Shown one piece after another: positions 1-47,990 of a stretch of DNA of 64,000 nucleotides (position 1 is the stretch's first letter; each line of letters starts with the position of its first letter). Below the pieces are notes generated by a model. It worked only from the letters and a program-made list of their open reading frames with translations, did no database searches and was not told the origin of the DNA. Position numbers and translations under genes: made by a program. The stretch is from an uncultured virus (IMG/VR IMGVR_UViG_3300010885_044417) (lineage: Duplodnaviria > Heunggongvirae > Uroviricota > Caudoviricetes): IMG/VR virus record IMGVR_UViG_3300010885_044417. One strand, given 5' to 3'.

Positions 1-112
1 GGAGATTTCAGGCGTGAACATGCGCAAGCCGATGTGCGGCATAGCTGCTTGGAGAAGCTGGCCCTCGATCAGCATAGGAGAGTTTTCCAGCGCCTTTAGC
101 TTGCGGCGAGAA
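1..112. repeat. Terminal direct repeat, left copy (circular overlap)
   Basis: nt 1-112 (ggagatttcaggcgtg...gcggcgagaa) are identical to nt 63889-64000. Confidence 0.95.
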
Positions 113-696
113 TACGCTAGGCCATAGACACCGTCAATATGCTCGGCCAGAGTCTGCTCGTCTCGGCCGTCACGGTGGTAGTTGTAGTGCGCGATGACCG
201 GAGATAAACTTTGCGGCAGCCAGTGCTCGCAGAAGTTGTTCGTGTGGATATTCCATTCTGAGCCATAGGCCCAGTTGAAATACCCGTGGACCACGCGCTC
301 GTAAGCTTCGCTGGGTTCATACATCTCCTCGCGGGCAACAAAAGCGTCCTGGTGCGCCTGGATTGTCTCTTCTGGCGTGTCCAGAAGTGCGACTAGGTAG
401 ACAATTCCCAAGTCATTCATGGCCTGGTTGAGGAGAGCCGTCTGCGCCAAGAGCGTCGAGCCTCCGCGGTAGGCCATGCCATAAATCTGCTCCGACGGCC
501 AGTGGCGGTCAATGATGACGGGGCAATACCTCGACCAGCGCAGCGCTAGCCGAAGGCTCCCGACTTGGTAGGCAAACAGCCGGTCTCTGAGCGTTAGGTG
601 CAGGTAGCGGCCGCCGTGGCGCTTGCGGAATTCTTTGGCCCAAGTGGTCTTGCCGACTGCGTCAGGCCCTTCAACAACGATGATTGGGTAGTTCAT
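1..696 (-). CDS. Thymidylate-kinase-like dNMP kinase, 243 aa; spans the circular junction and ends at 63853
   Basis: Not in the ORF track. Translated by hand from ATG at 696: MNYPIIVVEGPDAVGKTT (P-loop)...VIIDRHWPSEQIYG. Open to nt 1, then continues 63888 to TAA at 63855-63853. Confidence 0.85.
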   Translation of the reverse strand, partial: MNYPIIVVEGPDAVGKTTWAKEFRKRHGGRYLHLTLRDRLFAYQVGSLRLALRWSRYCPVIIDRHWPSEQIYGMAYRGGSTLLAQTALLNQAMNDLGIVYLVALLDTPEETIQAHQDAFVAREEMYEPSEAYERVVHGYFNWAYGSEWNIHTNNFCEHWLPQSLSPVIAHYNYHRDGRDEQTLAEHIDGVYGLAYSRRKLKALENSPMLIEGQLLQAAMPHIGLRMFTPEIS

Positions 697-698
697 GG

Positions 699-1244
699 CT
701 AGAAAATTTCGTCGACAAGCTGGGTGGCAACGCGGCGAAGCACTGGAAAAAGCTTTGGCGAGAAGTTGATCGGAAGGTCCGGCAGCTTGCCGTCGACTAC
801 CTGATGCTGAGCGCGGCGGAACTCGTCGATCGAAAAGAAGCTTCGGAGGTCAGCCAGGACGATCGCGTCGTGCTTGTCTGGCTCCATATTCTTGACGCGC
901 TCGGCCAAGCCATAGACAGGCAGCGACCAGACGCCAATGACCCAGTCAAAGCCGTCGCCATTGATACTGCGGTAGACAGTGTGGAAGCTGCAGTTTTCAG
1001 GAAGCTCAGCCACGCCAAGCTCCTCATAGAGCTCGCGAACAATTCCAGACTCAAAGCTTTCGCCGTGCTCAAGGAGGCCGCTAGGGGCAGACATGCAGTT
1101 CTTGGCAGAGCGCACGCCTTCTCCACGCCACAAGAGCGCGGCTTTCTTGGTCTCAGGGTCATACGGCAGGACCATGACCACGAAGTGGGGAAGTGGTTCG
1201 GCCAGGTGCTTTTTTTCAACTAGGGCAGGATCATTGTCGGGCAT
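699..1244 (-). CDS. Nudix hydrolase
   Basis: Canonical Nudix box GLLEHGESFESGIVRELYEELGV. Start placed at ATG 1244 (MPDNDP), just after the polA stop. Confidence 0.9.
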   Translation of the reverse strand: MPDNDPALVEKKHLAEPLPHFVVMVLPYDPETKKAALLWRGEGVRSAKNCMSAPSGLLEHGESFESGIVRELYEELGVAELPENCSFHTVYRSINGDGFDWVIGVWSLPVYGLAERVKNMEPDKHDAIVLADLRSFFSIDEFRRAQHQVVDGKLPDLPINFSPKLFPVLRRVATQLVDEIF

Positions 1245-1263
1245 GTTGGTGTTGGGTTTGGGG

Positions 1264-3087
1264 TTACTTGAGGTAGCAGGGTGTGATCTTGGCTTCAGAG
1301 TCGAGAGCGATGCCGGGCATCCACTCACACTCCTCGCGCATGATTTCTTGCACGCACTCGAAAGCGTCTTTCGCCTGGTCAGCCGGCACTTCATCTGTGA
1401 TGACTTCATCGTGGACGGCAAAGAGAGTTGGGATTCCGGCATCTTCGATCTTGAGCAGTTTCTCGTAGAAGCAGTCCCGAGCCGTGGCCTGGATAATGTT
1501 CTCAACGCCGAGGCTGCCCCACATCCGGTTGACTCGGCCAGTGGCTAGCGTCGCCGTGAGCTGCCCTTTGACCTTCCTGACGTCTCGGTAAATCATGCTG
1601 TTCCAGCTAGGGAGCTCGACTTCCAGGTCGCCGCCAATCGACGACTCGAGCTGCGCGTGGATCTTGTTCCAGAAGTTGACGATCAGCCTTTCCTTGCGGC
1701 GGAAGTCTGCCACCTGCGTCTTGGCTTCCTTCGGCGTCATGTGGTAGCTGTATTGATTCCAGCAGTAGTCCACGAAGCGCTCGGCACCGCAGCCGTAGGA
1801 AAGCCCGAGCACGCGCATCTTGCACAGAGCGTAGGTGTGCGGGTCTGAAGTCTTCAAGTTAGGCCCATTGTAGGCCATCGTCTGGATTGCGTGGACCTGG
1901 TAGACTGAGATGCCCTTGTTAATCATCTTGATCTTCTCATGGTCATTGACCATCCATGCCAAAGTGCGCGGCTCGATTTGGGCCAAGTCAGCCACGATCA
2001 GCTGGCCGCCGTTCATCGCGGCTACCGCTTTGCGCATGTCCACCAAGTCTTCGGCAGGGAGGCTCTTGGCTTTTTGGCCTGGAGCCAGGTCGACGCAAGG
2101 AAACGGATCTCGCTGGAAGCCTTGCACGTTGAAGCCTTGGTCGCCGCTGGCTCTCTTTGTGTGGGCGCCGCAGTATTTCTGGCTAAAGTCAATTCTGCCA
2201 TCAGAGCGGATACGGTTGCGCATCGCCTGAAGCTTAGTCATGAGAAGATTAGCCTTGCGGTAGCGGCGCATAGACCTGACCCACGGAATGTCAGGATGCT
2301 CAGCTTCCCAGCGCTGGCAATCCGTGTTGTCTTCAGCCAGAGAGCGGGGAGGCGTGATCCCGATCTTGCGGCATTCTTCGGCCACCGCGATCTGCGAAAG
2401 CACGGCCGCTTCTTCGGAAGTGCCATTTGCCCAAGGAATCAGCTTCTTGGCTTCCCAGCATGCGCGCTCAAGCCTGGCAATTGACTGATCCAAATACTCG
2501 CTATCGGCAGGCAAGCCTCGAAGGACTTGCCGGGTCGTCATCTCGCTAATCCGCTGTTCGACGGCCGGCCACTTGTCCGAAAGATCTTCCCACAGTCTCC
2601 AGCACCAGTACGCGTCGCGCTCGGCGTACTCCAAAATTGCAGGCCAATCCTTGCTGTTGAGCAGCTCTCGATAGGTCTTATTCTCCATGACTTTCCGAGC
2701 GTCCTTGCTAACGTCGGCGCCAAAAGCTTTTTCGCAGGCTCCCTTTAAGTCTCTAGGAAGGCCGAGGTACGAAGTCAGATTTGCCGTGCAGTGCCAATTC
2801 TTTGGAGTATGCTGGGAAAGCTCTGGATGAATCTCGCATAGGCGCCTCCAAACTCGGCGGTCAAATCCTGCATTGTGGCTTGCCCAATCGAGGCCGCTAA
2901 TTTGGCCCCAGTCAAAATCATCGGGATGGCCGACAAATGAACCGCTGCGCGTGTGCACTGAGCATAGATAGACTTCAACTTCTGGATGGTGGAGGTACTG
3001 GTCGACTCCCATAGTCTTGAGGCCGATCTTCCTCTTAGGGAAGAAAGACGTTTCGAAGTCGATTGCGGCGTGTTCTTTTGGTTTCAT
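1264..3087 (-). CDS. polA: Family A DNA polymerase with 3'-5' exonuclease domain
   Basis: ExoI IDFET, ExoII HNAGFD, ExoIII YAERD; motif A DLAQIEPR, motif B KMRVLGLSYG, motif C VHDE. Confidence 0.95.
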   Translation of the reverse strand: MKPKEHAAIDFETSFFPKRKIGLKTMGVDQYLHHPEVEVYLCSVHTRSGSFVGHPDDFDWGQISGLDWASHNAGFDRRVWRRLCEIHPELSQHTPKNWHCTANLTSYLGLPRDLKGACEKAFGADVSKDARKVMENKTYRELLNSKDWPAILEYAERDAYWCWRLWEDLSDKWPAVEQRISEMTTRQVLRGLPADSEYLDQSIARLERACWEAKKLIPWANGTSEEAAVLSQIAVAEECRKIGITPPRSLAEDNTDCQRWEAEHPDIPWVRSMRRYRKANLLMTKLQAMRNRIRSDGRIDFSQKYCGAHTKRASGDQGFNVQGFQRDPFPCVDLAPGQKAKSLPAEDLVDMRKAVAAMNGGQLIVADLAQIEPRTLAWMVNDHEKIKMINKGISVYQVHAIQTMAYNGPNLKTSDPHTYALCKMRVLGLSYGCGAERFVDYCWNQYSYHMTPKEAKTQVADFRRKERLIVNFWNKIHAQLESSIGGDLEVELPSWNSMIYRDVRKVKGQLTATLATGRVNRMWGSLGVENIIQATARDCFYEKLLKIEDAGIPTLFAVHDEVITDEVPADQAKDAFECVQEIMREECEWMPGIALDSEAKITPCYLK

Positions 3088-4452: not shown

Positions 4453-5469
4453 TTAGCCGAGGCTCAGGACCCAGCGAGCAAACGCCATGTCCTTGTGAGC
4501 TCCGAGGTTCTTGAACTGCGCCACCGTGACGATGTTGCCGCTCTTCTGCTTGTCGCGAGCGCAGCTCATCCCGAGCATGTAGCCACGGGTGTCAGGGCGG
4601 AGGCTCGTGCGGCTCTGGGCCATCAACCACTTGCCAGACGTGCTGGTGCGGTAGTTGACGCCAGTGAAGCGCATCTCGGCAAGCGTGAACTTGCGCTCGC
4701 CGAACTCCAGGTTGAAGATCGGGTGCGGCTCGATGAAGTCCGGCTGCTCGAGAAGGAACAGCGTGAACAAGGCCGGGTCCACAGTCGGAGGCGTGTTGTC
4801 CTCCCACTGAGTGGTAAAGCCTGCGGCTTCCGCGTCGTTTGAACTGTCAAAGATCATCGGGATAACGCCGGACTTGTACTCGTCGTCGGTCAACTTCTGG
4901 ATAAACTTCTTCCGCCCGGTCATCAAGATAAGGTTAAGCGGAGGGCAGCCTTTGTCCCAGACCAGGATTTCGCCATTGAGGGCAATCTGGCCAACAACAA
5001 ATCCCTTCTCTTCCAAGTCCGAGCTGTTTGCCTGGACCATGTTGATGCGAGGACGCATGAGGTCGCGCTCATCAATCTCGCCGTCGATCTGGCCAAGGGC
5101 CATCGGCTGGTAAGAAGTGACTGCTCGCTCACTACCGGGCTCCTCAGCGTCGCCGTCTTCAGCCACGATCTCGGTCTTGCGGACAGCGAGCTTCTTGGCG
5201 GCGGGCTTAGGAGCTTCCTCAGCTTCCTCAGCTTCCTCAGCTTCAACGGTCTCGACTTCAGCCTCGACGGTCTCAGGCGCAGGAGCTTCCTCTCCAAGAC
5301 GCTTCTTGAGAAGCACTTTCTTGGGAGCTGCAGGTTCTTCCTCAACGGCCTGCTGCGACGCAGCTTTGGGCGCAAGGGTTTTCTTGACGGGAGCCTCAGC
5401 CTCGGTCTCGGGCTGGGCGGTGTCGGCAGCGTCTTTGCGACGCAGCGACAGTTTTGTCTGTAGTGCCAT
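4453..5469 (-). CDS. Putative ssDNA-binding/replication protein with an acidic low-complexity N-terminus
   Basis: E/A/K-rich N-terminal third, then a globular domain (DLMRPRINMVQANS). Lies between the exonuclease and polA; function inferred from context. Confidence 0.45.
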   Translation of the reverse strand: MALQTKLSLRRKDAADTAQPETEAEAPVKKTLAPKAASQQAVEEEPAAPKKVLLKKRLGEEAPAPETVEAEVETVEAEEAEEAEEAPKPAAKKLAVRKTEIVAEDGDAEEPGSERAVTSYQPMALGQIDGEIDERDLMRPRINMVQANSSDLEEKGFVVGQIALNGEILVWDKGCPPLNLILMTGRKKFIQKLTDDEYKSGVIPMIFDSSNDAEAAGFTTQWEDNTPPTVDPALFTLFLLEQPDFIEPHPIFNLEFGERKFTLAEMRFTGVNYRTSTSGKWLMAQSRTSLRPDTRGYMLGMSCARDKQKSGNIVTVAQFKNLGAHKDMAFARWVLSLG

Positions 5470-5498
5470 GGTGTTGGTGTTTGGTTGCGAGGATGCGG

Positions 5499-5777
5499 TT
5501 AGGCATTCTCAGTGTTGAGGATCTCATGGATCCGGTTCGCCAGCTCGCCGAGAGTCAGGTCAGCTGAATAGCCGAGCTGCTTCTCGTCGAGAAGACTGGA
5601 GATTCTTTCCTCGAACTCAGAGACAAGCTCAACCATGTCGAGGCTGTCAAGTCCAAGGTCTTCCTGAAGGCGGGTCTCAGCGGTGAGCTCGCTTTTAGGC
5701 GCTGCGTCGAGGGTTTCAAGACAATCCTTAAGAATCTCAAGGATGTCTTCCTGGTTGGGTTTGGGCGTAGTGCTCAT
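5499..5777 (-). CDS. acpP: Acyl carrier protein
   Basis: Small, very acidic protein with LQEDLGLDSLDMVEL (phosphopantetheine-attachment Ser) and C-terminal TLGELAN. Confidence 0.85.
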   Translation of the reverse strand: MSTTPKPNQEDILEILKDCLETLDAAPKSELTAETRLQEDLGLDSLDMVELVSEFEERISSLLDEKQLGYSADLTLGELANRIHEILNTENA

Positions 5778-6940
5778 GATTTTTTGCCACGTGCAAGCTG
5801 GACATATCGGATTTGCGGGCCGTATTGGATGATGCCTTCCTTAGCAAGGAACTCGATCGCTTCATCCTGGACTTTGCCTTTTTGACCTCGCTCGGCTTTA
5901 GCCCCGACCAGCTCACGAATCTTAGTGATTGAGACGTCGCATGAAGCTAGGAACTCGTCATTTGAAATTCCAAAGCGCTCTTGCACCATGTCGCGAACAA
6001 ACAGCGGATCTACAACGGTGGCATCGCCGTTCTTCTCGATGAGGTTAAGACCGGCATCAATCTTGCCTGTGTCATAGACAGCCAACGCAAAGCGCTTAAG
6101 TTTCTTGAGATAGTCTTCCATGGGCTTAATCCAACGGAATACGCGGACAACTTCCTCAGGGTCTGCAGAGTCGATGTCTTCAAGCGAAGTGATCGGCATG
6201 ACAGGGCACTCAAGAATGTTAGCCTCGTTGGCAAGCTTGACTTGGTACTGCTGCCAGATTGCGCAAGTTGCCTGGACAGCGCAGAAAGTGCAGTTAGTCT
6301 CATTGCTTTGCAACATCGAAGCGTCGCGGGTTTCGAGGTACTTATGGCGACGCTTGACCACAGCTCCAACTTGAGAAGCGATCATGTCGTAGTCTTTGGC
6401 GCGAGTAAAGGTATGGCTTTCATCGACAGTCAACGCCGGCTGAATAATGCGAACCGTAATCTTCTCGATGCTCGGGAAGCTAAGGAACAAGCCAAGCGCG
6501 TAGGCGCGGAACTGAATGTTTTCCTTAACATGGTCTACCGCCCACTGGCCAAACTTAAAGTCGATCATCTCAACATGGACAGGATCGTGGTCTTCAGTAG
6601 CCTCGAGAACAATGACGCGATCCGCATGGCCTTTCTCAAAGTCTTTGAGATTAAGCGCGGTAAAGTCCAGCTCGATTTCGCAGAGCGGATCATACTGTGA
6701 CCGGCCGTCAGCTTGGCGCAGGACTTCAAGAACCTGCTGGGCTACCGCACGGTCTTCTTCGCTCATGGTATCGGGAATGATCCCGCTATCCATAACTTCG
6801 TGGAGGGCAGTTCCGCGCTTAGACGCTTCGCTGTCGCCTTGGATGGACTCGTAACCTGGGCAGGTTTGGAGTGACTTAAGCCCTGAAGGGCTGATGCGGG
6901 AGTGCCCGCGACTATTATGGTTTGGTGTTTTCTTGCTCAT
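5774..6940 (-). CDS. PD-(D/E)XK/Cas4-like exonuclease (DUF2800-like)
   Basis: HSRISPS..CPG, GTALHE, GHAD, IDFKFG, QFRAYALG, CTFC...C. Confidence 0.85.
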   Translation of the reverse strand: MSKKTPNHNSRGHSRISPSGLKSLQTCPGYESIQGDSEASKRGTALHEVMDSGIIPDTMSEEDRAVAQQVLEVLRQADGRSQYDPLCEIELDFTALNLKDFEKGHADRVIVLEATEDHDPVHVEMIDFKFGQWAVDHVKENIQFRAYALGLFLSFPSIEKITVRIIQPALTVDESHTFTRAKDYDMIASQVGAVVKRRHKYLETRDASMLQSNETNCTFCAVQATCAIWQQYQVKLANEANILECPVMPITSLEDIDSADPEEVVRVFRWIKPMEDYLKKLKRFALAVYDTGKIDAGLNLIEKNGDATVVDPLFVRDMVQERFGISNDEFLASCDVSITKIRELVGAKAERGQKGKVQDEAIEFLAKEGIIQYGPQIRYVQLARGKKS

Positions 6941-6945
6941 GACGT

Positions 6946-7452
6946 TTAGGCTTGGATTTGCTGACTAAAAATAAACTCGGCAATGCGGGCGCGGATTGAC
7001 GATATTGGAACGCGCACAAGGCGAACATCGTTTTGGCTGAGGATCTCCATGCCAACCGTATCCCTTGGGTAAGGCTCGCCATAGACAACAGTGTGCACGC
7101 CGTGCGCAACTAAGTTTAATGCGCAAGGAGTGCAAGGGATCGTCGTACAAGCTACGATGTAAGCTTCGCCTCTGCGGAACAAGCTGCAAAGATTTGCCTC
7201 GGCGTGAATGACATGAGTCCGGCGGTTCTCGTCAACATTCCACCATTCTTGAGGCTGATACATCCCAGCCGCAAGTCCGTTGTACGCGGTAGCAATGACT
7301 CGGTTGTCTTTAGTTAAAGCCGCGGCGCCGACTTTACGCTTAGGGTCTTCAGAACGCATCGAGGCGATGAGCGCCAAGGCTAAGGCGTATTCTTCCTTGC
7401 TCAGGCGCAGAGCCGACGGTTCTGCTGGGTGTTTCTCGATGTTATTGCTCAT
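6946..7452 (-). CDS. dCMP deaminase
   Basis: RSEDP..KVGA, YNG, HAE and PCTPC Zn motifs. Start moved to ATG 7452, which lies 10 nt from a promoter -10. Confidence 0.92.
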   Translation of the reverse strand: MSNNIEKHPAEPSALRLSKEEYALALALIASMRSEDPKRKVGAAALTKDNRVIATAYNGLAAGMYQPQEWWNVDENRRTHVIHAEANLCSLFRRGEAYIVACTTIPCTPCALNLVAHGVHTVVYGEPYPRDTVGMEILSQNDVRLVRVPISSIRARIAEFIFSQQIQA

Positions 7453-7462
7453 GACGTGAGTG

Positions 7463-7490
7463 ACTTTATCGTGGCTAGCTGCTAAGTAAA
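7463..7490 (-). promoter_or_regulatory. Sigma70-like promoter with the shared spacer motif
   Basis: TTTACT-tagcagctagccacga-TAAAGT-10 nt-ATG. Confidence 0.55.
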
Positions 7491-7500
7491 ACAAAAAGAT

Positions 7501-8355
7501 CTACGTAGATTTTGGCCAGTCTCGATAGCTATTGATGCTAGCCCTGTCAATGGTCGTGGTTACTTCGCCAGCAACGTTCCAAAACAAATCGCCGGGCTCT
7601 GTGTATTCCCACACTTTTGCGTCGTAGTTTGACGCCGATGGAAACGGTGGCTTAACGAGGCTGTCTTGCGCGAAGTCTCTGTAGTGGCCGACAATGTTGC
7701 AGCGGCCGCGTTCGCCATGCTGAATGTTGCGAGCAACCGCGACGCCATTTGCTTGAGCCTCGGGCCAAGCAATCTGCAAAGCTCTATTAAGAACGCCAGT
7801 TGAGAATGCCGTCCAGAAAGAATCCGGAATGCAAAGATCAAACGCGGTCTTGACAATCATTGCCGTGACTAGCTTGTGCTTAAGTCCGAGCGGAACAAAG
7901 AAAGCGTTATTTTCTTCAGCCCACTTAGCCGCGATCAAGTTTAAGTTCGGCATTGCCGCTATGCGGTGGAAGTGGTACTCGCAGCCGTGCTCAATGCACC
8001 AAGCCTGATGCGTTGAGACTTCTTTTGAAGAAGGCATAAACAGAACCAGCTTTTTGCCGTAGAGTTTGCATAGCTTAGTGAGGCTTACGCCTGCAAATCC
8101 ACACCGAGGCTGCACATAGACAATTGTGTCACTCGGGCAAGTTGCAACTAAAAATTCACCGGCTCTGGCCTTAGTTCCAACATCGATTAAGTCTTCGCGG
8201 ACAACATATCGGCCTTCGTGCATTTGAATGACCGGGTCCGGGAAGCTGCTCTTAAAATCGCCAACCATTTCGAGATACTGATCTCGCGTGTAGATGGCGT
8301 CTTTGTTTACTTCCGAAGCTGTGACTGAAAATTTTGGTACTCTTGTTCCGTCCAT
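7501..8355 (-). CDS. PLP-dependent enzyme (fold type II-like), of the kind seen in phage DNA hypermodification loci
   Basis: VVREDLIDVGTKAR (PLP Lys), GFAGVSL, FVPLGL, AFSTGVL, YDAKVW, FWNVAG. Confidence 0.8.
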   Translation of the reverse strand: MDGTRVPKFSVTASEVNKDAIYTRDQYLEMVGDFKSSFPDPVIQMHEGRYVVREDLIDVGTKARAGEFLVATCPSDTIVYVQPRCGFAGVSLTKLCKLYGKKLVLFMPSSKEVSTHQAWCIEHGCEYHFHRIAAMPNLNLIAAKWAEENNAFFVPLGLKHKLVTAMIVKTAFDLCIPDSFWTAFSTGVLNRALQIAWPEAQANGVAVARNIQHGERGRCNIVGHYRDFAQDSLVKPPFPSASNYDAKVWEYTEPGDLFWNVAGEVTTTIDRASINSYRDWPKST

Positions 8356-9272
8356 ATTTTTCTAAGGATTGAGTTGTTCTTGTAAACTTTGCCGCCATTC
8401 TTAAGAATATGGTCTCGAGACTGGTAGTCTAGGAAGTATCTGACAGGATCGCAAAGCCGTGAATCCTCGATAGAATACGGCATGGAGTTGTACCGCTCGG
8501 CCAAAAAAGCAATTGCCTCGTCTGAGCGGCATCGACCAAAGATTGCTTTAATGCACTTTTGGGCGTTTGTCCCGGCATAAATCATGCTTGCAGGATTTAC
8601 AAGCTCAGCGTGATACTCGGCCACGTCTGCCGCAAAGGCGCTAAGTACAAAAGTCTGCCTCTTAAATCCAGACTCTTTTAGATATTCGTTGCCTTTGTCG
8701 ACAAAGTCAATAATCTCGTGCCGCGCATCGAGCACTTCGCTTTCTAAGAATTTGACTAAGCCGTAAGCGTGGTCTTGAATGAACGTCCTTAAGCCGATAG
8801 AAAACTGAGGAAGCAAGTAGCCTTTGTTGTCGCTAAACTGAGCAGGAGGAAGATCCTCGAGCCACTGCTCATATCGGTACCGGCCGTTGAGAATACTCTT
8901 AACGACCCAGAAATTCCCAAAGCCGTGACTGCCAGGCTTGTAGTTAATGCCCGATCCGCACAGCCTGAATAGGTAGTAGAGCATTAGCTTATCGATCCTT
9001 CGGCTAACGGCATGGTCTTTGAAACGCACGCCGTGGCCTTTAGGATCCAGCTCGCGCTTATGCAAAGCTTCTAAGAACGAGCAAAAGGCGGCATAGCGCC
9101 TGTCGAGCATGTCGTAAATCGGAACGTGGAACACGAGGTCGTCGTCGACCATGTCTCGCAATTCTTCTTCGGACACGCCAGCTTTATGACCATCGAAGTA
9201 GTACTCCTGCATGGTCAAGCTCTTAATGTGGTAGTCGTCAAGCGCGTCGAGGATTTCTGATTTGATTTGCAT
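8307..9272 (-). CDS. 5-HMUDK / aGPT-pyrophosphorylase clade 1-like DNA-base kinase (divergent)
   Basis: DDDLVFHVPIYDMLDRRY, FVLSAFAADV, YAGTNA and IEDSRLCDPVRY occur in the order of that family's conserved blocks as recalled. Start placed at ATG 9272 (MQIKSE). Confidence 0.55.
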   Translation of the reverse strand: MQIKSEILDALDDYHIKSLTMQEYYFDGHKAGVSEEELRDMVDDDLVFHVPIYDMLDRRYAAFCSFLEALHKRELDPKGHGVRFKDHAVSRRIDKLMLYYLFRLCGSGINYKPGSHGFGNFWVVKSILNGRYRYEQWLEDLPPAQFSDNKGYLLPQFSIGLRTFIQDHAYGLVKFLESEVLDARHEIIDFVDKGNEYLKESGFKRQTFVLSAFAADVAEYHAELVNPASMIYAGTNAQKCIKAIFGRCRSDEAIAFLAERYNSMPYSIEDSRLCDPVRYFLDYQSRDHILKNGGKVYKNNSILRKIWTEQEYQNFQSQLRK

Positions 9273-10125
9273 AGTGCTTAGGGCGGATGTGGACAGATTG
9301 TCTGGGTTCCATGACTTCGTTCTCGTATTGCTCGAGATTGTTGTACCATTCCTTAGGCCACTTGTGGACTTCAAGGCTGGAGTTGCAAAGGATTGCGTTA
9401 AACTCTTCCATGAGGTAAGTCCTATCAGCCTGGCTACCGTAGAACGGTTTGCCTTTGTAGAGGCCTGTGCCCGGCAGCTTGCGGCTTTCGCTTTCGACAG
9501 GCAACAGGCAAGAAACCTTTGCGCCGCAGTTTCGAGCAAAGTCAACATAACGGCTTGCCAACTGGCGCGTGGCAGTCAGGGGGTCAGCTTGGCGGCATAA
9601 GTGGAAGCGGATGTCGATGTTGCCCATGTAAAGGAAGTCGGCTTTCTTTGGGTCGTTCAAGAATCCCCACAAAGTCTGGCCGTCTCGGCGCTCAATCATG
9701 TGGTCGGCACCAGGCCAGACTGAGAGCGAGTGGCTGTCGCCAAGCATCAGCTTATTGCGCGGAGGAAAAACCACGCCAGGAATCTGACCTTCAAACTCAT
9801 ATTGGCCAGGCAGACGTTTCTCAAGAAAATCCTGCAGCTGGAAGCCGTCAAACTGGTCGACCATCGCCGTCTCGAAAGCCGCGGCCAATTTCTCAAGCCG
9901 TTTGTGAATTGCTTCGCCGATTCCGCCAATGACGTTGAAGACGCCGGGCTTAAAGTTGAGGCCGTGGTTAATGATGAGTCGGTCGTAGCCAGACCAGTCG
10001 TCGTTCTCAGTGAGAAAGTCTGCGTCTGGGTCGATAAGCTCGCGCACGATGTAGTTCCATCCTGCCGAGTGGCTATTGAGGCTGGTTGACGGGTTATTGA
10101 GGACCCCGATGAATCCTGTTTTCAT
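9238..10125 (-). CDS. SGNH/GDSL-hydrolase-like protein
   Basis: LMLGDSHS (block I), DGQTL (II), YMGNID (III), SVH (V) in the C-terminal half. Confidence 0.55.
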   Translation of the reverse strand: MKTGFIGVLNNPSTSLNSHSAGWNYIVRELIDPDADFLTENDDWSGYDRLIINHGLNFKPGVFNVIGGIGEAIHKRLEKLAAAFETAMVDQFDGFQLQDFLEKRLPGQYEFEGQIPGVVFPPRNKLMLGDSHSLSVWPGADHMIERRDGQTLWGFLNDPKKADFLYMGNIDIRFHLCRQADPLTATRQLASRYVDFARNCGAKVSCLLPVESESRKLPGTGLYKGKPFYGSQADRTYLMEEFNAILCNSSLEVHKWPKEWYNNLEQYENEVMEPRQSVHIRPKHYANQIRNPRRA

Positions 10126-11489
10126 ATCATTCCTCCTGCGTTTAGTTCTCCATCCGAAAGCATCGAGAGATTTTCTAATCTCTTTTCGACAACCTTCGCG
10201 ATCTTTTCCTCTATTCCTCCTGCCGCGTACACTATTCTTTGCACCGCAGGAGACTTTGCCCCAGAACGCACAACTCGGCCAAGCACTTGGATGAGCGTTA
10301 CCGATTTGTATGTCGGGAAAATTATCACGTGGCGTGGGTGGCCGCCAACTATATCATGCAAGTCGATCGATTCAGAACCAGCATCTACTTGGCAGATAAT
10401 TATTTTACGCTCGTTGGCTTGAAACTTTCTGACATGCTCGTCAGCCTCTTTGCGGCTACGTCCACCAGCCAGAATAGAATGACTTGCACCTAGCCGCGAA
10501 CTAATGACCTGAATGGTCCTGGTAAACTGGACAAACGCTGCGACAGACTCGCCCTCGTCTACGCGATCTTGTATCTCCTCGAGAAGAGCCGGGACCTTTG
10601 ATAGCTCAGCTCGCTGCCTGTCTCGCATAGCCAAAATTCCAGCATGCGGATCAAAGTTGTGTCGATCCATATCGGCGTCTTCATCTCGATCAATCTCATC
10701 CATGTATGGCTTTAGCCAAGAAGGCGCTGCGCTAATGTCCCACAGTTCCACAAAAGTTTCGGACTCGGGGAATTGACCGGCATCCATCAGCTCTTTTTTC
10801 CTAAGGCGAATACCCCAAGGATCTTTACCTGAAAACAGGGTCGCGTGGAGATTTCCTAGGACGCGCTCGCGGTCTTTGTTTCGGAAATACAATCCTCCAA
10901 ATGGGCTTTTGCCACAGCCATTTTTTCGGCACCAGTTCCAAAAGCTTTCGCCAAGTTCATGCAGCCCGCAGCAGAATCCGAGAGCCCGCATTTTCAAAGG
11001 AGAATCTGCGGGAGTCGCGGATAGCCCAAGGACCAAGGCATTTGGGCAGCGTCGGGCGGCAATGACTAGCTCAGCATTCTGGCTTTTAACAGCGCCGCCG
11101 GCATGGATCTCGTCAATGATGACAATTGTAGGCTCAGCCAGGCGTAAGCTAAAAGTAGAAACTTTGCCGCGGTTATTCTTGATCGGCATGAAGAAGCCAT
11201 TCTTTGGAGAGCGAGCTTTTTCCCAGCTCATTAGAAAGACAGGCTCAATCTTAAACATTGCCAAAGCTTCACGCCACTTAGTCTGTGCTCTAGCCCGGCA
11301 AATAACAGCTACAGGAGGCAGGGACTTAGAATCTCCACTCGGCACAAACTCAAGAGCCGTAGCGATAGCTGTAAAGGTCTTGCCAATGCCAGTATCAGAT
11401 CCATCAAGGGCAAACTGTTTTGTCGCAAGAATACTGGCGAGCTTAGCCGCGGCCTCGACTTGGTAAGGACGAAAAGTTATTGAGGCCAC
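10122..11489 (-). CDS. Superfamily 2 helicase
   Basis: FRPYQ, DTGIGKT, DEIH, SATP, SESIDL, QVLGRVVR. Confidence 0.93.
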   Translation of the reverse strand: MASITFRPYQVEAAAKLASILATKQFALDGSDTGIGKTFTAIATALEFVPSGDSKSLPPVAVICRARAQTKWREALAMFKIEPVFLMSWEKARSPKNGFFMPIKNNRGKVSTFSLRLAEPTIVIIDEIHAGGAVKSQNAELVIAARRCPNALVLGLSATPADSPLKMRALGFCCGLHELGESFWNWCRKNGCGKSPFGGLYFRNKDRERVLGNLHATLFSGKDPWGIRLRKKELMDAGQFPESETFVELWDISAAPSWLKPYMDEIDRDEDADMDRHNFDPHAGILAMRDRQRAELSKVPALLEEIQDRVDEGESVAAFVQFTRTIQVISSRLGASHSILAGGRSRKEADEHVRKFQANERKIIICQVDAGSESIDLHDIVGGHPRHVIIFPTYKSVTLIQVLGRVVRSGAKSPAVQRIVYAAGGIEEKIAKVVEKRLENLSMLSDGELNAGGMI

Positions 11490-11692
11490 GGCTTGTCGGA
11501 TTTATTGATTTCCCAGGTAGCGTTAGCCCAGACCCGGACTTGGTCGGTTCTAAAATGTCGGATGTCGCCGCCATCTCGAAGGATAACCGTTAAGATGTCG
11601 TTCTCTTTCCAGCCGCCAGGCTGGACATAGAACAGCCAGCCGTCGCCAAGAGGCGTCGTCACGGCAATGGGATCTCTGAACTCGTGGATCAT
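11477..11692 (-). CDS. Small hypothetical phage protein
   Basis: 71 aa, tiles with neighbours. Confidence 0.7.
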   Translation of the reverse strand: MIHEFRDPIAVTTPLGDGWLFYVQPGGWKENDILTVILRDGGDIRHFRTDQVRVWANATWEINKSDKPWPQ

Positions 11693-12042
11693 TTGGGCTT
11701 ATTTTTGCGGCGCATGCCCTGGCGCTGGACGCGCTCAATCTGCCTGCGGTTATGCTCTTCAAGCTTCTTAAAAGCCGACAGCTGGCCAGTTCTAAAATAG
11801 ACCTGCATCTTGGCCGTAAAGTAGTCAGGAGGCGGCGGCGCAATCAATTGCACCTCTTGAGCCTTAACGTCTTTGAACTGATCGCTGACGGAATTAAAGC
11901 CCATCACCCAGCAGCGCTCGGCCATGAGCTGCCGTATGAACAACTTCCACAAAGGAATCGCCAGCAAAGCTAAGCCAAGGATAATGCCTACGCCGGGAAG
12001 AGCTTGCTTCCACCAATGAATGTGCTCGGCTAGCTCACGCAT
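11689..12042 (-). CDS. Hypothetical membrane protein
   Basis: N-terminal hydrophobic segment; ATGA overlap. Confidence 0.65.
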   Translation of the reverse strand: MRELAEHIHWWKQALPGVGIILGLALLAIPLWKLFIRQLMAERCWVMGFNSVSDQFKDVKAQEVQLIAPPPPDYFTAKMQVYFRTGQLSAFKKLEEHNRRQIERVQRQGMRRKNKPK

Positions 12043-12337
12043 AAGTCACCTCCTCAACCATGCGTTTAAAGTTTGCTTTGGCTGGATTAAAGCCAAGAGC
12101 TTGCAAGATTTCCGCCTCGCTAGTAATTTTGCCGGCAGCATAAAAGACGACAAAGTCTTCGGGCTGCATTTTACGAGCCGCGTCTTGCTCAGCCTCGAGA
12201 GCCTGCATAGAAGCCGCTGCCTCTTCGGTAAGCAAAGACAAACCGCGATACTTGCGAAGTTCAAGGCCTGCGCGGCTGATCTGGGTGGCTCGGCGCTGAA
12301 AGGCGCCAAGAGGAGTTAACTTGACAATGGTTTTCAT
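12035..12337 (-). CDS. Hypothetical protein
   Basis: Tiles in the early operon. Confidence 0.65.
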   Translation of the reverse strand: MKTIVKLTPLGAFQRRATQISRAGLELRKYRGLSLLTEEAAASMQALEAEQDAARKMQPEDFVVFYAAGKITSEAEILQALGFNPAKANFKRMVEEVTYA

Positions 12338-12345
12338 GGGTGGTT

Positions 12346-12669
12346 TTAGTTTTCGGGTTCTAGGTTTACTGCGTGCTCCTTTGCAAGCTCAATCACCAGC
12401 TCAGAAAATCTGGCAAGGACTTGCTTGTCGTCAGGAGAAGGGATGACTCGGATGCAAGTTTCAAGAATAGTCACGGCATGGATTAGGCCGAAGTAGAATG
12501 CTTCTTCAGCGGCCTCAATTTCCGGGCTTGACATGTTGTCAATCCTGGATCTAAGGTAGTCGCGAAACGCCTCTTTTGGGTCAAGCTTGAGGCTGACCAG
12601 CTCATTTCGGCCATTCTTGATGATGACCTCGTTGACGTCGTGGCCTGGCGGAATAAAGCTTTCGCTCAT
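12346..12669 (-). CDS. Hypothetical protein
   Basis: Tiles in the early operon. Confidence 0.7.
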   Translation of the reverse strand: MSESFIPPGHDVNEVIIKNGRNELVSLKLDPKEAFRDYLRSRIDNMSSPEIEAAEEAFYFGLIHAVTILETCIRVIPSPDDKQVLARFSELVIELAKEHAVNLEPEN

Positions 12670-12929
12670 GGCGCTTGAACCTTTTTAAGAACCGCCGCGG
12701 ATACGTCGATCAAGCCGATGCAGATTTGCGCTACGCAGGCTGGGATCTCGACTACTTCTACACTGGCTTTGCCGCAGTCGCGAGCAGTCTTGTTGCGCAA
12801 AGCGACTTCCAAAGCGATCTTGGCCAGGCCAAACTGGACAATCATGCTTTCTAGGGCTTTGCCTTCTTCCTTGAGGCCGGCGGCTTTTTCAATGCCGCTA
12901 GCCATGTCATCAATCACGTTCTCACTCAT
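12666..12929 (-). CDS. Hypothetical protein
   Basis: Start placed at MSENVIDD (12929), after a C/A-rich leader. Confidence 0.65.
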   Translation of the reverse strand: MSENVIDDMASGIEKAAGLKEEGKALESMIVQFGLAKIALEVALRNKTARDCGKASVEVVEIPACVAQICIGLIDVSAAVLKKVQAP

Positions 12930-12948
12930 GTTTTGGTGTTGGTTGGGG

Positions 12949-13251
12949 TTACTCGGCAGTCGTGTCAGGCGTTTTTGCCCGAAGCATCTGGCGAAATTTT
13001 TTCTCAGCACTTTCAAGATCGATGTAAGTAAAGCCGTGGATTCCCCACTCGGCAGTTCTTGGCATGAATTCGCTGGGCTCGACAACTCGGCCCATGATCT
13101 CATATCCCTGGTGCGTTTGCACTCGGACGACTTCATAGCTAGGAGTCGCGCAGTCTTTGCGAGTCTTCTCGACGATGGCAATCATCTTTTCACGGCAGAT
13201 AACTTTATGGTCAAAGCCGTCTTTTTTGAATTGTGTGGCTAGTGGTCTCAT
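12949..13251 (-). CDS. Hypothetical phage protein
   Basis: 100 aa; ATGA coupling. Confidence 0.7.
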   Translation of the reverse strand: MRPLATQFKKDGFDHKVICREKMIAIVEKTRKDCATPSYEVVRVQTHQGYEIMGRVVEPSEFMPRTAEWGIHGFTYIDLESAEKKFRQMLRAKTPDTTAE

Positions 13252-13607
13252 CGGTTAAATGCGGTGTTGGTTTGGCTGTGTCGGTTTTCGGGAAGGCAGA
13301 GGCAGTAGATGGAATTGTAGGCAATTGGTTCTTGGCCGCCAACTCCGCGCTTAGGCAGAGTGCGGAAGCGCCAGTCACAAGGACCGTACTCTTCAAGCAA
13401 AGCTGCGTTGAGATGGTTTGCCATAAGCCAGCCTTTGCCGTGAGCTCCTTCATAGGTCTTGTCCACGGTTTTCCAGCCTGCGCGCTGCATGTAGACCACA
13501 AGTTGGAATAAAGATTTGGCTTTTGGGATCTTGGTTTCGATGTAGCTCAAAGGCTCCTTGGCCGGGACGGCAATTGGGCGGTTCTTGTGCATGGTGTATG
13601 TTCTCAT
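13248..13607 (-). CDS. Hypothetical protein
   Basis: ATGA coupling at both ends. Confidence 0.65.
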   Translation of the reverse strand: MRTYTMHKNRPIAVPAKEPLSYIETKIPKAKSLFQLVVYMQRAGWKTVDKTYEGAHGKGWLMANHLNAALLEEYGPCDWRFRTLPKRGVGGQEPIAYNSIYCLCLPENRHSQTNTAFNR

Positions 13608-13876
13608 GATCCTTTTCCAACGACTTGTTCGATTGGCAAAATAACTAGCAGCTCGGCAATTAGGTCATCCGTCAAATTGTAGTGGTCCCGAAGAAGCCGG
13701 CCAAGTTCATAGGCCAGGTCTTCATCCTCATGCATGTTGTAGTCTCGACCATCCGCGGTCGTGGTATCCCACTGTCTGGCCATGTCTAAAACCGCGCAGG
13801 ATGCGTCGGGACTTACGCCCATAGGAAGTTGCAGCCCGTCAATAAACGCGCGACTGGGTGAATCCTGGTAGCTCAT
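13604..13876 (-). CDS. Hypothetical protein
   Basis: ATGA coupling at both ends. Confidence 0.65.
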   Translation of the reverse strand: MSYQDSPSRAFIDGLQLPMGVSPDASCAVLDMARQWDTTTADGRDYNMHEDEDLAYELGRLLRDHYNLTDDLIAELLVILPIEQVVGKGS

Positions 13877-14115
13877 GTGGTGCGGCTGGGATAGAGTTTC
13901 TCGGTACGGGTAGCCGAGTCTTTCTGCCGATGGGCAAGCTTCTCGGCATCAAACTGGTCGATGTGTGCTTTGCACTCCTTTAAAGTAGGAAAGAGTGTCC
14001 AATCAGTAACCCAGGTGCAGCGGCAGCCGCCGTGACGATTTGCCCCGACGTTGCGCCAGATGGCCACGCCTTTGTAAAGAGAATAGAGGACGGTATTCAT
14101 GGAATTAACGGCCAA
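13873..14115 (-). CDS. Hypothetical protein (start may be a few codons downstream)
   Basis: Tiles in the operon. Confidence 0.55.
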   Translation of the reverse strand: MAVNSMNTVLYSLYKGVAIWRNVGANRHGGCRCTWVTDWTLFPTLKECKAHIDQFDAEKLAHRQKDSATRTEKLYPSRTT

Positions 14116-30744: not shown

Positions 30745-30855
30745 GGCCGCCGAAAGCGGCTAGCTCGCAAGTGGCTTCCAACAGTTGCAGACAGGCCGCA
30801 TACTGTCCTAGCGTGCCGAGGACGAACCATGCTTGTCACCACAATGGTGGCAGGT
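30745..30855 (+). promoter_or_regulatory. Structured 5' leader of the major capsid gene
   Basis: Consecutive hairpins GCCGC/GCGGC, GACAG/CTGTC and TGTCACCA/TGGTGGCA. Confidence 0.45.
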
Positions 30856-30885
30856 TAACTCAACCTCATTAAAAGCACAAACATC

Positions 30886-32094
30886 ATGGCTTCTACAAGC
30901 ACTATCGATGTCGGAGCGGTACAAAGTTTTGCCGCAAAAGACACCAATCGCATTGTGGGACAGATCGGCAAGGTTCTTGCCAGGAAGTCCCCTTACATCA
31001 ACATCCTCAAGGGTGGAACCATCGCTAACGTTTCTGATGTCGTTCGTTCGATCATTCAGGAGCGTGCAGTAGTGGGCGCTAGCCTTGCCAACCCCGTGTT
31101 CCAGGAAGATGCCACCATGTGTGGTACTGGAGCCACCCAAGACCAGGTCGGTTCGACTGAATACCAGTTCAAGCTCGAGTCGCTCCGTGGTATTGGACCT
31201 AGGGTTTGCGTCAAGACCAGCCGCACCGCCTTCAAGGGCGCCTATCTCCAGGCACAAATGGCCTTGGAGAAAGGTATTCTTCAGATCATGAACTCCGACG
31301 TCCGCGCGACTCTCCTGAATCGCTCGGGTATCAAGTTCATCGCCAAGAAGAATACGGCCTTTGAAAACCTCATTGTTGGCGACGCCCAGGCGATCGACCA
31401 GAAGTTTGCTGGTCTCCCCGACTCGCAGATGAACTTCCGTTCTCTGTACCGTCTCGGAACCCTTCTCCGCGAGGAGCTTCTGGTTGAGCCTTTCGGTACC
31501 GAGAAGGGAGACTACTTCATGGTCATCGCATCGATCGACCAGATTGAAGCCTTCCGCACTCAGGCTGACGTCAAGGAAGACCTGAACTACCTCACGGCTG
31601 GATCCTTCAAGGTTGGATCCGATGCCATCAGTGGGTATCAGTTCCAGGGCTACCGCGGCTTTGGCTTTGGTATCGATAGCCAGCCTCTCCGCTTCAACCA
31701 GCTCAAGGCCGATGGTACGCCTGACCTGATTGAGCCTGAGATTGGTGTTGATGCTCGGTACGGTAGGGCTTCCCGCCGTAACCCTGTCTGGGTTTCTGCT
31801 AAGTACGAGATCGGATTCCTGGTTGGCGGCGAGTCTTTCGCCCGCCTGACCCCCGAGAAGTACAGCGGAGAAGGAAGCTTCAAGTTTGCCCCGCAGCTTG
31901 CGATGGGTGAGCTCGAGTGGGTTGCTCAGCGCGATAACAGCCAGAACCTGTTCCTCGACTACGGGCAGCACATCTACCAGATCAGCCGTGCTTACCAGCC
32001 GATCCGTCCTCATGCTGTGGTGCCTTTCGCTTATCAGCGTTGCACCTTCAACACGGGACTGAGCTCCTGCGTAACTAGCTCCACCGGTCTGTAA
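30886..32094 (+). CDS. Major capsid protein
   Basis: 402 aa, strongly C-ending codon bias, long leader, follows the portal/scaffold block; no named family recognised. Confidence 0.75.
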   Translation: MASTSTIDVGAVQSFAAKDTNRIVGQIGKVLARKSPYINILKGGTIANVSDVVRSIIQERAVVGASLANPVFQEDATMCGTGATQDQVGSTEYQFKLESLRGIGPRVCVKTSRTAFKGAYLQAQMALEKGILQIMNSDVRATLLNRSGIKFIAKKNTAFENLIVGDAQAIDQKFAGLPDSQMNFRSLYRLGTLLREELLVEPFGTEKGDYFMVIASIDQIEAFRTQADVKEDLNYLTAGSFKVGSDAISGYQFQGYRGFGFGIDSQPLRFNQLKADGTPDLIEPEIGVDARYGRASRRNPVWVSAKYEIGFLVGGESFARLTPEKYSGEGSFKFAPQLAMGELEWVAQRDNSQNLFLDYGQHIYQISRAYQPIRPHAVVPFAYQRCTFNTGLSSCVTSSTGL

Positions 32095-47207: not shown

Positions 47208-47990
47208 ATGGGAGGCGCACCTTCAGGCCAAGCTACGTACGCGGAACCCCTCGGCGCCCAGTATGCCGCAGGAATGGGAAACGCTTTAGCGCTAAGCAAC
47301 AAGGTTGTTGACTACGCTGTCGAAAATAGGCCCGAGCTTCGCGAAGCCGAAATTAACCGGCTTCAGACCATGGCTCCGAGAGAAGCGCTGATCAATGCGC
47401 TAAAATCTGCGGAGATGGAAAGAACTTTGACGCCAGACGTGGCAAAAGTCCGTCTAGGGCTTTCAAAACAAATGGCTGAAGATCTCGATGGCGGGCCTTC
47501 TAAAGAGCTTTCCAATATGTGGTTGAAGCAAGGTCTTTCAGATGCAATTGCTACCGGCGCCCGATCTGATTCTGGGTTTGCTCGCGCAGCATTAGCTGAT
47601 TCGACTAGGCGCGACTATCTTGCAAACCGTAGAACTCAGCAAGACCGCGCAGCTGCCTTTTTAGCGGCAAACCCAGTTCCGGTTGCCGGCCTAGATCCTG
47701 GCTCTTTAGCCAGTATCATGACGCAGACAAACGCAGAAAATGCCAACGCTCGTGACTCCTACAAAACGCAAGTTCTCGGGGCTTTAGGAAACCAAGCTGC
47801 CAATGTCACAAATGCTTTCCAACAGGCCATGCAAATGGAAGCGCAGCGCCGAGCCTACAACGCGCAAGCCGCCAACTCGATGACCGCAGCCAACATGCAA
47901 GCCAGCAGCTCTAATTCTGCATCTTGGATGGGACTCGGCGGAGCCGGAATTGGAGCCGCGGCTGGAATTGGAGCCGCGGTTATTATTTAA
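47208..47990 (+). CDS. Internal virion/ejection protein, paralog 2
   Basis: Colinear with paralog 1 (RLQTMAPREA, GPSKELSN.WLKQG, NVTNAFQQAMQMEA). Confidence 0.65.
   Translation: MGGAPSGQATYAEPLGAQYAAGMGNALALSNKVVDYAVENRPELREAEINRLQTMAPREALINALKSAEMERTLTPDVAKVRLGLSKQMAEDLDGGPSKELSNMWLKQGLSDAIATGARSDSGFARAALADSTRRDYLANRRTQQDRAAAFLAANPVPVAGLDPGSLASIMTQTNAENANARDSYKTQVLGALGNQAANVTNAFQQAMQMEAQRRAYNAQAANSMTAANMQASSSNSASWMGLGGAGIGAAAGIGAAVII

Follow-up and report, generated by a model that had tools for sequence, protein, structure and literature searches.

The locus described here raises the question of which DNA base would be modified, and by what chemistry, by three overlapping genes in the genome of an uncultured tailed phage (Caudoviricetes; IMG/VR record IMGVR_UViG_3300010885_044417). 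The 64,000 nucleotides analysed, hereafter the window, come from a phage contig of 64,011 bp and leave out only 11 of its bases. The genes, P1 (9238-10125, 295 amino acids), P2 (8307-9272, 321 amino acids) and P3 (7501-8355, 284 amino acids), lie on the minus strand and are followed on that strand by a gene for a deoxycytidylate (dCMP) deaminase (6946-7452, with an alternative TTG start at 7494). A first-pass annotation had proposed that they hypermodify 5-hydroxymethyluracil (5hmU), with P2 resembling the 5-hydroxymethyluracil DNA kinase (5-HMUDK) and with no visible amino acid:DNA transferase (AADT). To our knowledge, the amino-acid and polyamine hypermodifications of phage DNA are all on thymine and start with an ATP-dependent DNA kinase, and the known hypermodifications of cytosine are sugars. 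The evidence below leads us to a different answer: the cassette is probably a cytosine version of phage thymidine hypermodification that works without a DNA kinase and yields an undescribed, amino-acid-type modification derived from 5-hydroxymethylcytosine (5hmC). A literature search, outside which bioRxiv supplements lay, found no published description of the cassette.

The triplet is far from unique to this phage. A scan of IMG/VR with a P2 profile confirmed 219 stretches, of which the best 80 were taken as loci, linkage being counted only where enough flanking DNA was present. P1 lies directly upstream of P2 in 72/72 testable loci and P3 downstream of P2 in 70/70, so that the co-occurrence which the first-pass annotation had proposed checking is borne out. 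A gene for a ThyA-like enzyme of Asp type (see below) accompanies them in 45 of the 46 loci with more than 5 kb of downstream sequence; the one exception, L006, is closely related to the window, and in that group the gene is about 9 kb away. Gene order and strand are constant across loci on contigs of 4 to 185 kb, with identities to the window as low as about 31% for P1, 42% for P3 and 45% for P2. Protein searches at E<=0.001 returned 381 P2 and 357 P1 sequences, each the representative of a 90%-identity cluster. An exhaustive P2 profile search gave 113 representatives, among them 8 long proteins (560-790 amino acids) in which a P2-like C-terminal half is fused to an N-terminal half that matches the P1 hidden Markov model (HMM) at E 1e-51 to 3e-79; hhalign comparison of P1 with three of these fusions gave 1e-56, 4e-45 and 3e-46. 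The fusions indicate that P1 and P2 form one functional unit. A prediction of the P1-P2 complex scored 0.00 without controls and counts neither for nor against the pairing. In the window the genes overlap, as the earlier annotation had reported, by 35 nt (P1/P2) and 49 nt (P2/P3); the second overlap is found again in relatives, and the start of P2 is backed by homologues of 317-321 amino acids. These results support the view of P1-P2-P3 as a genuine cassette for DNA modification, uncharacterised so far and under strong conservation.

The identity of the base is indicated by the ThyA-like gene (62999-63835, minus strand; Thymidylat_synt 1.5e-22). Its best match in the PDB is the CMP 5-hydroxymethylase MilA (1.1e-20, versus 4e-14 for thymidylate synthases), it scores 59.8 bits against a cut-off of 327 for the NCBIfam thymidylate synthase model, and with Asp at both 143 and 177 it is not a thymidylate synthase proper. 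In this family, a dCMP substrate is indicated by the change of Asn177 to Asp, a hydroxymethyl rather than a methyl product by that of Leu143 to Asp or Glu, and a 5-hydroxy-dCMP synthase by that of Asp169 to Asn (PMC13326640). The window protein carries Asp, Cys, Asp and Asp at the positions corresponding to E. coli 143, 146, 169 and 177, which is the pattern of a dCMP hydroxymethylase. Indeed, the same signature is present in 60/60 cassette-linked ThyA-like homologues, while nine canonical ThyA proteins from the same loci have Leu, Cys, Asp and Asn in 9/9. The signature thus suggests that the pathway starts from 5-hydroxymethyl-dCMP (5hm-dCMP) and not from 5hm-dUMP, and we infer that the modified base would be of the cytosine rather than the uracil or thymine type. 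The 5hmU basis of the earlier proposal is therefore abandoned.

A second departure from the thymidine pathways is that the component missing from the window appears to be the DNA kinase. Neither P1 nor P2 has a P-loop, and the only kinase-like open reading frame (ORF) with one (1-696, minus strand, open at the start of the window) resembles thymidylate kinases (AAA_33 2.9e-4; Thymidylate_kin 0.013; phrog_761, 'thymidylate kinase', 5.9e-14). By these matches it may phosphorylate the modified dCMP and is not a DNA kinase. A Pfam scan of the 64 window ORFs gave no match to HMUDK_hel, aGPT-Pplase, canonical AADT or radical-SAM models. Likewise, tblastn of M6 gp51, gp53 and gp54 against the window gave nothing at E<0.05, the best E for gp54 (5-HMUDK) being 0.066. 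The statement that no radical-SAM gene is present is upheld by both searches. On our reading the SGNH protein, P1, occupies the place of the absent kinase.

Is there then a transferase? P2 itself has no Pfam, PHROG or NCBIfam match, and Foldseek of its model against the PDB returned nothing at E<=0.001; kinship of the fold surfaced only through VIA-align and BFVD comparisons. The model (predicted local distance difference test, pLDDT, 90.3) is all-helical and HhH-GPD-like across 321 amino acids, with neither a P-loop nor a kinase domain, and its nearest neighbours are AADT/Pplase2 (PaMx11 gp46) and helix-hairpin-helix (HhH) glycosylases. The top named entry in BFVD is annotated 'Amino acid:DNA transferase domain-containing protein' (TM 0.73, E 6.4e-10, 20% identity), followed by weaker matches to Pplase1 and to the helical domains of the 5-hmdU DNA kinases of PhiW-14 (E 0.099), SP10 (0.14) and Lucky3 (0.14). 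As modelled, P2 thus has the metal-dependent-type, HhH-containing helical fold of the AADTs (PMC13458397; PaMx11 gp46 structure).

P2 also has a motif resembling that of these enzymes. The catalytic motif of AADTs is E-T-x-x-C, in which a Glu-Thr metal site is followed by an essential Cys, namely Glu243, Thr244 and Cys247 in PaMx11 PUGT (PMC11472151, excerpt); the equivalent residues of phage 15599 Pplase2 are E222, T223 and C226 (PMC13458397), and M6 gp51 reads ETVLC at this point. In P2 the corresponding stretch is E269-D270-S271-R-L-C274-D275. Of 72 full-length sequences representing the wider family, 67 retain Cys274 (the remaining 5 have gaps there) and 63 retain E269; position 270 is Asp in 60 and Glu in 4. 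C240, the protein's other cysteine, is retained by just 26. The ends of the aligned ranges (P2 model 8/9..285 versus chain 7/8..258) would put Cys274 on Cys247 and Asp270 on Glu243. Since aGPT-Pplase and AADT are one enzyme family (PMC8989533, excerpt), P2 is a candidate transferase and not a kinase. Our preferred reading of its model is a highly diverged transferase of AADT type, the one thought to be missing. The claim that no transferase is visible therefore survives in that no canonical AADT was found by the Pfam scan or the M6 searches, and fails in that P2 itself is AADT-like.

P1 may be the partner that activates the base for P2 or transfers an acyl group. Its alignment-based model (pLDDT 91.5) has two domains. 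Residues 1-120 form a small flavodoxin-like alpha/beta domain with invariant residues of its own, for which structure comparison against a protein atlas returned generic flavodoxin-like look-alikes only (TM 0.4-0.5). Residues 121-295 adopt the alpha/beta fold of the SGNH-hydrolase superfamily, with Ser131 (GDS131H, block I), Gly154 (block II), Asn169 (GN169, block III) and His279 (block V), so that the SGNH motif reported from the sequence is matched by the fold. This set is invariant in 34 homologues, 8 P1-P2 fusions and two Aeromonas homologues; the homologue of Tenacibaculum phage PTm1 keeps the Ser, Asn and His and has Ser in place of Gly154. Block V reads Q/K/S276-S-V-H279, the Asp of the usual D-x-x-H triad being missing. 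P1 has no Pfam family at E<=0.1, GDSL and SGNH models included, and no NCBIfam match, and it matches two PHROGs of unknown function. With its Ser, Gly, Asn and His intact despite the missing Asp, P1 seems able to work as an esterase or acyltransferase of the Ser-His kind.

P3 has a characterised homologue. The PALP model is matched by the window copy at E 0.0073 (16.1 bits, under the 35-bit cut-off) and by 18/24 family members (best 3.7e-11), and both the Schiff-base lysine, Lys62, and S185-T186-G187 are invariant in the family, in keeping with the fold-II pyridoxal phosphate (PLP) enzyme first described. P3 also matches phrog_7093 at 2e-32; it has no NCBIfam match, and sequence and profile searches of the PDB gave weak matches to cysteine synthases only (E 0.076-0.9). 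Besides decarboxylation, fold-II PLP enzymes carry out elimination and replacement. The P3 family aligns with M6 gp52 in hhalign (probability 94.5, E 7.7e-8, 222 columns), with Lys62 placed on K36 of gp52 and a C-terminal motif, PF..YD.K.W...FWN, shared by the two. In the account of PMC8989533 (excerpt), K36 is the aldimine lysine, gp52 decarboxylates C-alpha-glycinyl-T in DNA, and gp52 and ViI gp226, the latter modelled on a fold-II template, are PLP decarboxylases of amino acids already attached to DNA thymine. Given both its gp52 homology and its Schiff-base lysine, decarboxylation as a tailoring step is the likelier role of P3, ahead of the group transfer for which it had been one of two suggested candidates. 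A search for longer, fused forms of P3 found none, which is weak evidence.

P3-like domains were also seen in other settings. In Erythrobacter phage vB_EliS_R6L gp1 (L083 4891-7311) an N6/N4 DNA methyltransferase carries a fused P3-like PALP domain, and in Microcystis phage Mae-JY30 (L084 4135-5726) such a domain directly follows a methyltransferase, in a gene pair annotated as ParB. Such arrangements place the clade in DNA modification, and may represent another uncharacterised PLP-using system.

These components suggest the following pathway. The ThyA-like enzyme would, by its family signature, convert dCMP to 5hm-dCMP, which the thymidylate-kinase-like P-loop protein and host kinases would raise to the triphosphate and the family-A polymerase would incorporate into DNA as 5hmC, with the dCMP deaminase and a NUDIX protein managing pools as cd and gp56 do in T4. 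P2 would then flip 5hmC, its Cys274 attacking C6 and the acidic residues near it helping to expel the group on the 5-methylene carbon, and would add a nucleophile, probably an amino acid. The amino acid would be joined through its side chain, since PLP needs a free alpha-amine and no radical-SAM isomerase is present. P1, working as one unit with P2 and replacing 5-HMUDK, might use its SGNH site to esterify the 5hmC hydroxyl with an acyl leaving group instead of phosphate. Finally, P3 would decarboxylate or trim the amino acid so added; the resulting cytosine adduct would bear an amine and block host nucleases. O-acylation by P1 is the weakest part of this model and we consider it doubtful. C5-methyltransferases can substitute the hydroxyl of 5hmC directly after addition of a Cys at C6, so that cytosine may need no activation and P1 may have another role. 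We offer only tentatively the fuller proposal in which the P1-P2 unit activates and substitutes 5hmC in DNA without ATP, either by SGNH esterification or with P1 supplying the donor, P3 decarboxylates the product, and the same module modifies the hmC of phages 44RR, 31 and 25 of Aeromonas.

The cassette combines features of several known systems. With the thymidine pathways of M6, ViI, PaMx11, PhiW-14 and SH-Ab 15599 it shares a ThyA homologue making a 5-hydroxymethyl pyrimidine, an HhH-type helical protein with an acidic residue...Cys motif (P2), a gp52-like fold-II PLP enzyme (P3), and a position beside genes for the polymerase, a dCMP deaminase and a deoxynucleoside monophosphate (dNMP) kinase. 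It differs from them in that their ThyA homologue is of Asn type whereas the one here is cytosine-specific by signature, in having no P-loop 5-HMUDK, in the obligatory linkage and occasional fusion of an SGNH protein to the transferase-like protein, in a P2 that the Pfam AADT, Pplase and HMUDK_hel models do not see, and in the lack of a radical-SAM, FAD or acetyltransferase tailoring gene. With the 5hmC pathway of T4 it has in common a ThyA-like enzyme of dCMP-hydroxymethylase type, a dNMP-kinase-like protein, a dCMP deaminase and pyrophosphatase-type neighbours, and T4-like Aeromonas phages with gene 42 possess a P1 homologue; unlike T4, the cassette has no glycosyltransferase, and its AADT-like, SGNH and PLP proteins point to an adduct of amino-acid rather than sugar type.

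At the level of the single proteins, the P1-P2 fusions are analogous in architecture to 5-HMUDK, in which a catalytic 'activating' module likewise precedes an HhH-like helical module; the P1 module is an SGNH Ser-His fold and not an ATP-binding P-loop, and the helical P2 retains the transferase-like Cys motif. P1 differs from the SGNH/GDSL esterases and O-acyltransferases (carbohydrate esterases, PatB/OatA) in matching no Pfam model, in having Q-S-V-H in place of D-x-x-H, in its additional flavodoxin-like domain, in its cytoplasmic phage replication context and in its fusion to a DNA-base-flipping fold. P2, in turn, is only 5-12 percent identical to the HhH-GPD glycosylases (AGOG, AlkA, EndoIII) and DUF2419/Qng1, its context is modification and not repair, and an invariant Cys with an acidic cluster is what AADTs, and not glycosylases, typically have.

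Several observations weigh against this interpretation. As regards P2, Pfam gave 0 hits for 32 family members and 30 distant relatives; its profile aligns with M6 gp51 at E 0.46 only, which provides no AADT link at the sequence level; and a profile search of the PDB gave only a chance match to RpiR (E 0.13). P2 is thus not recognised as an AADT by the Pfam models (aGPT-Pplase, AADT, HMUDK_hel) or by comparison with profiles of known AADTs. Position 271, which would correspond to the Thr of the motif, is Ser or Thr in only 20/72 representatives, with Val in 26/72, and is variable outside the close family. Moreover, the equivalence of Cys274 and Cys247 is suggested by the alignment ends and not by residue-level superposition. 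Known AADTs require a phosphorylated substrate and bind the metal to O4 of thymine. The substrate 5-phosphomethyl-dU, made by a co-encoded 5-HMUDK, is not to be expected here, since the window has no P-loop DNA kinase and its ThyA-like enzyme is of the cytosine type. We found no precedent for SGNH acyl activation on DNA. P1-like proteins occur with no recognisable P2 in the 25-like Aeromonas phages and in PTm1, so the job of P1 may be independent of P2. Lastly, the identity of product and donor and the level at which the substrate is used (DNA or nucleotide) are all inferred, and the adjoining dCMP deaminase could conceivably convert 5hm-dCMP to 5hm-dUMP.

The last point leads to a thymine-type alternative, in which the deaminase makes 5hm-dUMP, 5hmU enters DNA, P2 and P3 act as in ViI and M6, and P1 or a host activity replaces the kinase. 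The deaminase was identified correctly in the first-pass annotation (PF00383, dCMP_cyt_deam_1, 4.7e-13, 49.3 bits against a cut-off of 25; phrog_174 4e-33), and it lies beside the cassette both in the window and in 39/80 loci by tblastn or 44/80 by clustering. This alternative also accords with the characterised AADTs, which all act on 5hmU derivatives (PMC8989533, excerpt; PMC13458397), and with P3, whose homologue gp52 acts on thymine adducts. However, since the deaminase accompanies only 39-44 of the 80 cassettes it appears to be accessory, as is cd in T4, and many loci with the full cassette and the ThyA-like gene show no deaminase in the available sequence (e.g. L012-L014, L018-L028, L063-L066). 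In addition, a canonical Asn-type ThyA is present as well in 9 loci, an argument for a continued need of dTMP, and no HD-family dTTPase or dTMPase is found among the neighbourhood families, in which dUTPase (39) and MazG (30), of untested specificity, do occur. Known 5hmU phages, moreover, use a dUMP hydroxymethylase of Asn type, and M6 gp58 has an Asn near that position. Taken together, we regard a thymine-type pathway as unlikely.

A similarly small chance attaches to a nucleotide-level role, in which the substrate of P1, P2 and P3 is free 5hm-dCMP or a similar nucleotide, either ahead of replication or during salvage or turnover, instead of DNA. Known pathways likewise place genes for pool enzymes beside those acting at the DNA level (PMC8989533, excerpt). 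Against action on the pool, the closest viral structural relatives of P2 are AADT-domain proteins (E 6e-10, well ahead of the rest), gp52 acts on DNA, and P3-like domains are fused or adjacent to DNA methyltransferases in the Erythrobacter and Microcystis phages.

Still less probable, in our view, is a scheme with no amino-acid transfer, in which the base already bears a sugar or another group on which P1 acts as esterase or O-acetyltransferase, and in which P2 is a DNA glycosylase-like module for targeting or repair. Neither a glycosyltransferase nor a sugar-nucleotide enzyme was found by Pfam among the 64 window ORFs, nor was one among the conserved neighbours, and the gp52-like PLP enzyme, invariably linked, needs an amino acid to act on. 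The original 5hmU pathway, with P2 as a 5-HMUDK-like kinase and the SGNH protein or PLP enzyme transferring the group, is very improbable: the P2 fold does resemble the 5-hmdU DNA kinase helical domain (BFVD, E 0.099-0.14), and fold-II PLP enzymes do catalyse beta-replacement, but P2 is all-helical with no P-loop or kinase domain and keeps an AADT-like Cys motif, P3 is homologous to a decarboxylase, and the ThyA-like enzyme is cytosine-specific by signature.

The preferred cytosine pathway can also be set against the cultured phages that carry P1 homologues. GenBank phages hold only 43 such records, namely 38 T4-like Aeromonas phages, 2 Stenotrophomonas phages and 3 Tenacibaculum phages; searches of GenBank phages with the DNA of the region (megablast) and with P2 (tblastn) gave no match. 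According to Petrov et al. 2010 (PMC2993671, excerpt), genes 42 and 56 are present in phages 44RR, 31 and 25, a glucosyltransferase is absent, and how their hmC is modified is not known. In Aeromonas phage 31 a ThyA of gene-42 type adjoins the polymerase and carries the Asp signature (RSND...GYRND). ORF233c of this phage (795 amino acids) has a P1-like N-terminal half, and its C-terminal half matches HMUDK_hel weakly (E 0.0036, below cut-off). The P2 profile gave no hhalign hit to ORF233c or to AS-gz gp086, and P2 family and superfamily HMMs (HMMER) matched no C-terminal half among the Aeromonas and PTm1 proteins, so that this Aeromonas 'fusion' is tied to P2 only by the sub-threshold HMUDK_hel match and short motifs. 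In the 25-like phage AS-gz (L090 1783-5047) a UDP-galactopyranose mutase, a 318-amino-acid gene (phrog_14998) and a stand-alone P1-like gene stand in a row beside motA, an arrangement suggestive of hmC modification of a sugar-linked kind in the 25-like phages. In Tenacibaculum phage PTm1 the P1-like gene lies between ribonucleotide reductase genes, and a divergent ThyA-like protein (L089 1444-2121) reads RSNN, with Asn at the 169 position that is diagnostic of 5-hydroxy-dCMP synthases (PMC13326640). These cultured carriers show that P1 tracks hydroxylated-cytosine metabolism. A sodium:solute symporter gene (SSF 7e-53; sglT in AS4) was also seen just upstream of the P1-type fusion gene in Aeromonas phages 31 (L001 4408-5931) and AS4 (L091 2377-3936), and may import a donor compound.

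If correct, the proposal would describe the first amino-acid-derived hypermodification of cytosine and extend AADT-type chemistry to that base, with an esterase-fold enzyme substituting for a kinase, and would define three families that have no Pfam or NCBIfam name. It would also make the P1(-P2) module the long-missing hmC-modifying activity of the T4-like Aeromonas phages 44RR, 31 and 25, and so bear on the question, posed by Petrov et al. 2010, of what modifies hmC in gene-42-positive T4 relatives without glucosyltransferases. This question is directly testable, because two Aeromonas phages in culture, 31 and 44RR2.8t, possess a P1 homologue. New base chemistries are relevant both to the resistance of phages to restriction and CRISPR and to tools for enzymatic DNA labelling.

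The cassette belongs to a minus-strand replication-module operon headed by a helicase gene (10122-11489), which overlaps P1 by 4 nt. After P1, P2, P3 and the deaminase come a PD-(D/E)XK exonuclease, a gene resembling those for acyl carrier protein (ACP; 5499-5777, minus strand, 92 amino acids; PP-binding 1.8e-7), the family-A polymerase, the NUDIX protein and the P-loop protein, from which the ThyA-like gene and a primase-helicase are reached across the contig ends. The ACP gene lies between the exonuclease gene and one for a 338-amino-acid protein without assigned function; it was considered as a source of acyl groups for P1 and was rejected as a conserved part, being found in 0/80 loci. The NUDIX ORF (699-1505, minus strand; NUDIX 1.4e-9 over residues 107-235; phrog_1198) overlaps the end of the polymerase gene as listed, so that its true start is probably downstream of 1264; by its family the product may be a dCTP/dNTP pyrophosphatase. 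Elsewhere the cassette is flanked by genes for DUF6378 (68/80 loci), dUTPase (39) and MazG (30), of which the window has no homologue and a NUDIX gene instead. DUF6378 (about 101 amino acids; e.g. L037 12650-12955) is the most constant neighbour, right after P3 or before P1, and is absent also from the closest relatives of the window. A further gene, of 227 amino acids and with no Pfam or PHROG match, stands between P2 and P3 in L037 (11039-11722) and 17 other loci.

A few features outside the operon are worth recording. Two open frames of about 400 amino acids, 30808-32013 (minus strand) and 30886-32094 (plus strand), run antisense to each other over 1.2 kb, so that only one can be a real gene; neither has a Pfam match. 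The structural module ends in a 2447-amino-acid ORF (51385-58728, plus strand) with no Pfam match at E<=0.01. Within the structural arm there is a gene resembling phosphoadenosine phosphosulfate (PAPS) reductase (47924-48883, plus strand; 1.8e-6), and Erythrobacter phage R6L likewise has a PAPS-reductase-like gene near its methylase-PALP gene. Finally, three sequencing runs contain this sequence, all as contigs; two of them, freshwater-metagenome runs of 2017 and possibly the source sample, carry about 0.8 of the words sampled from window positions 5000-14000.

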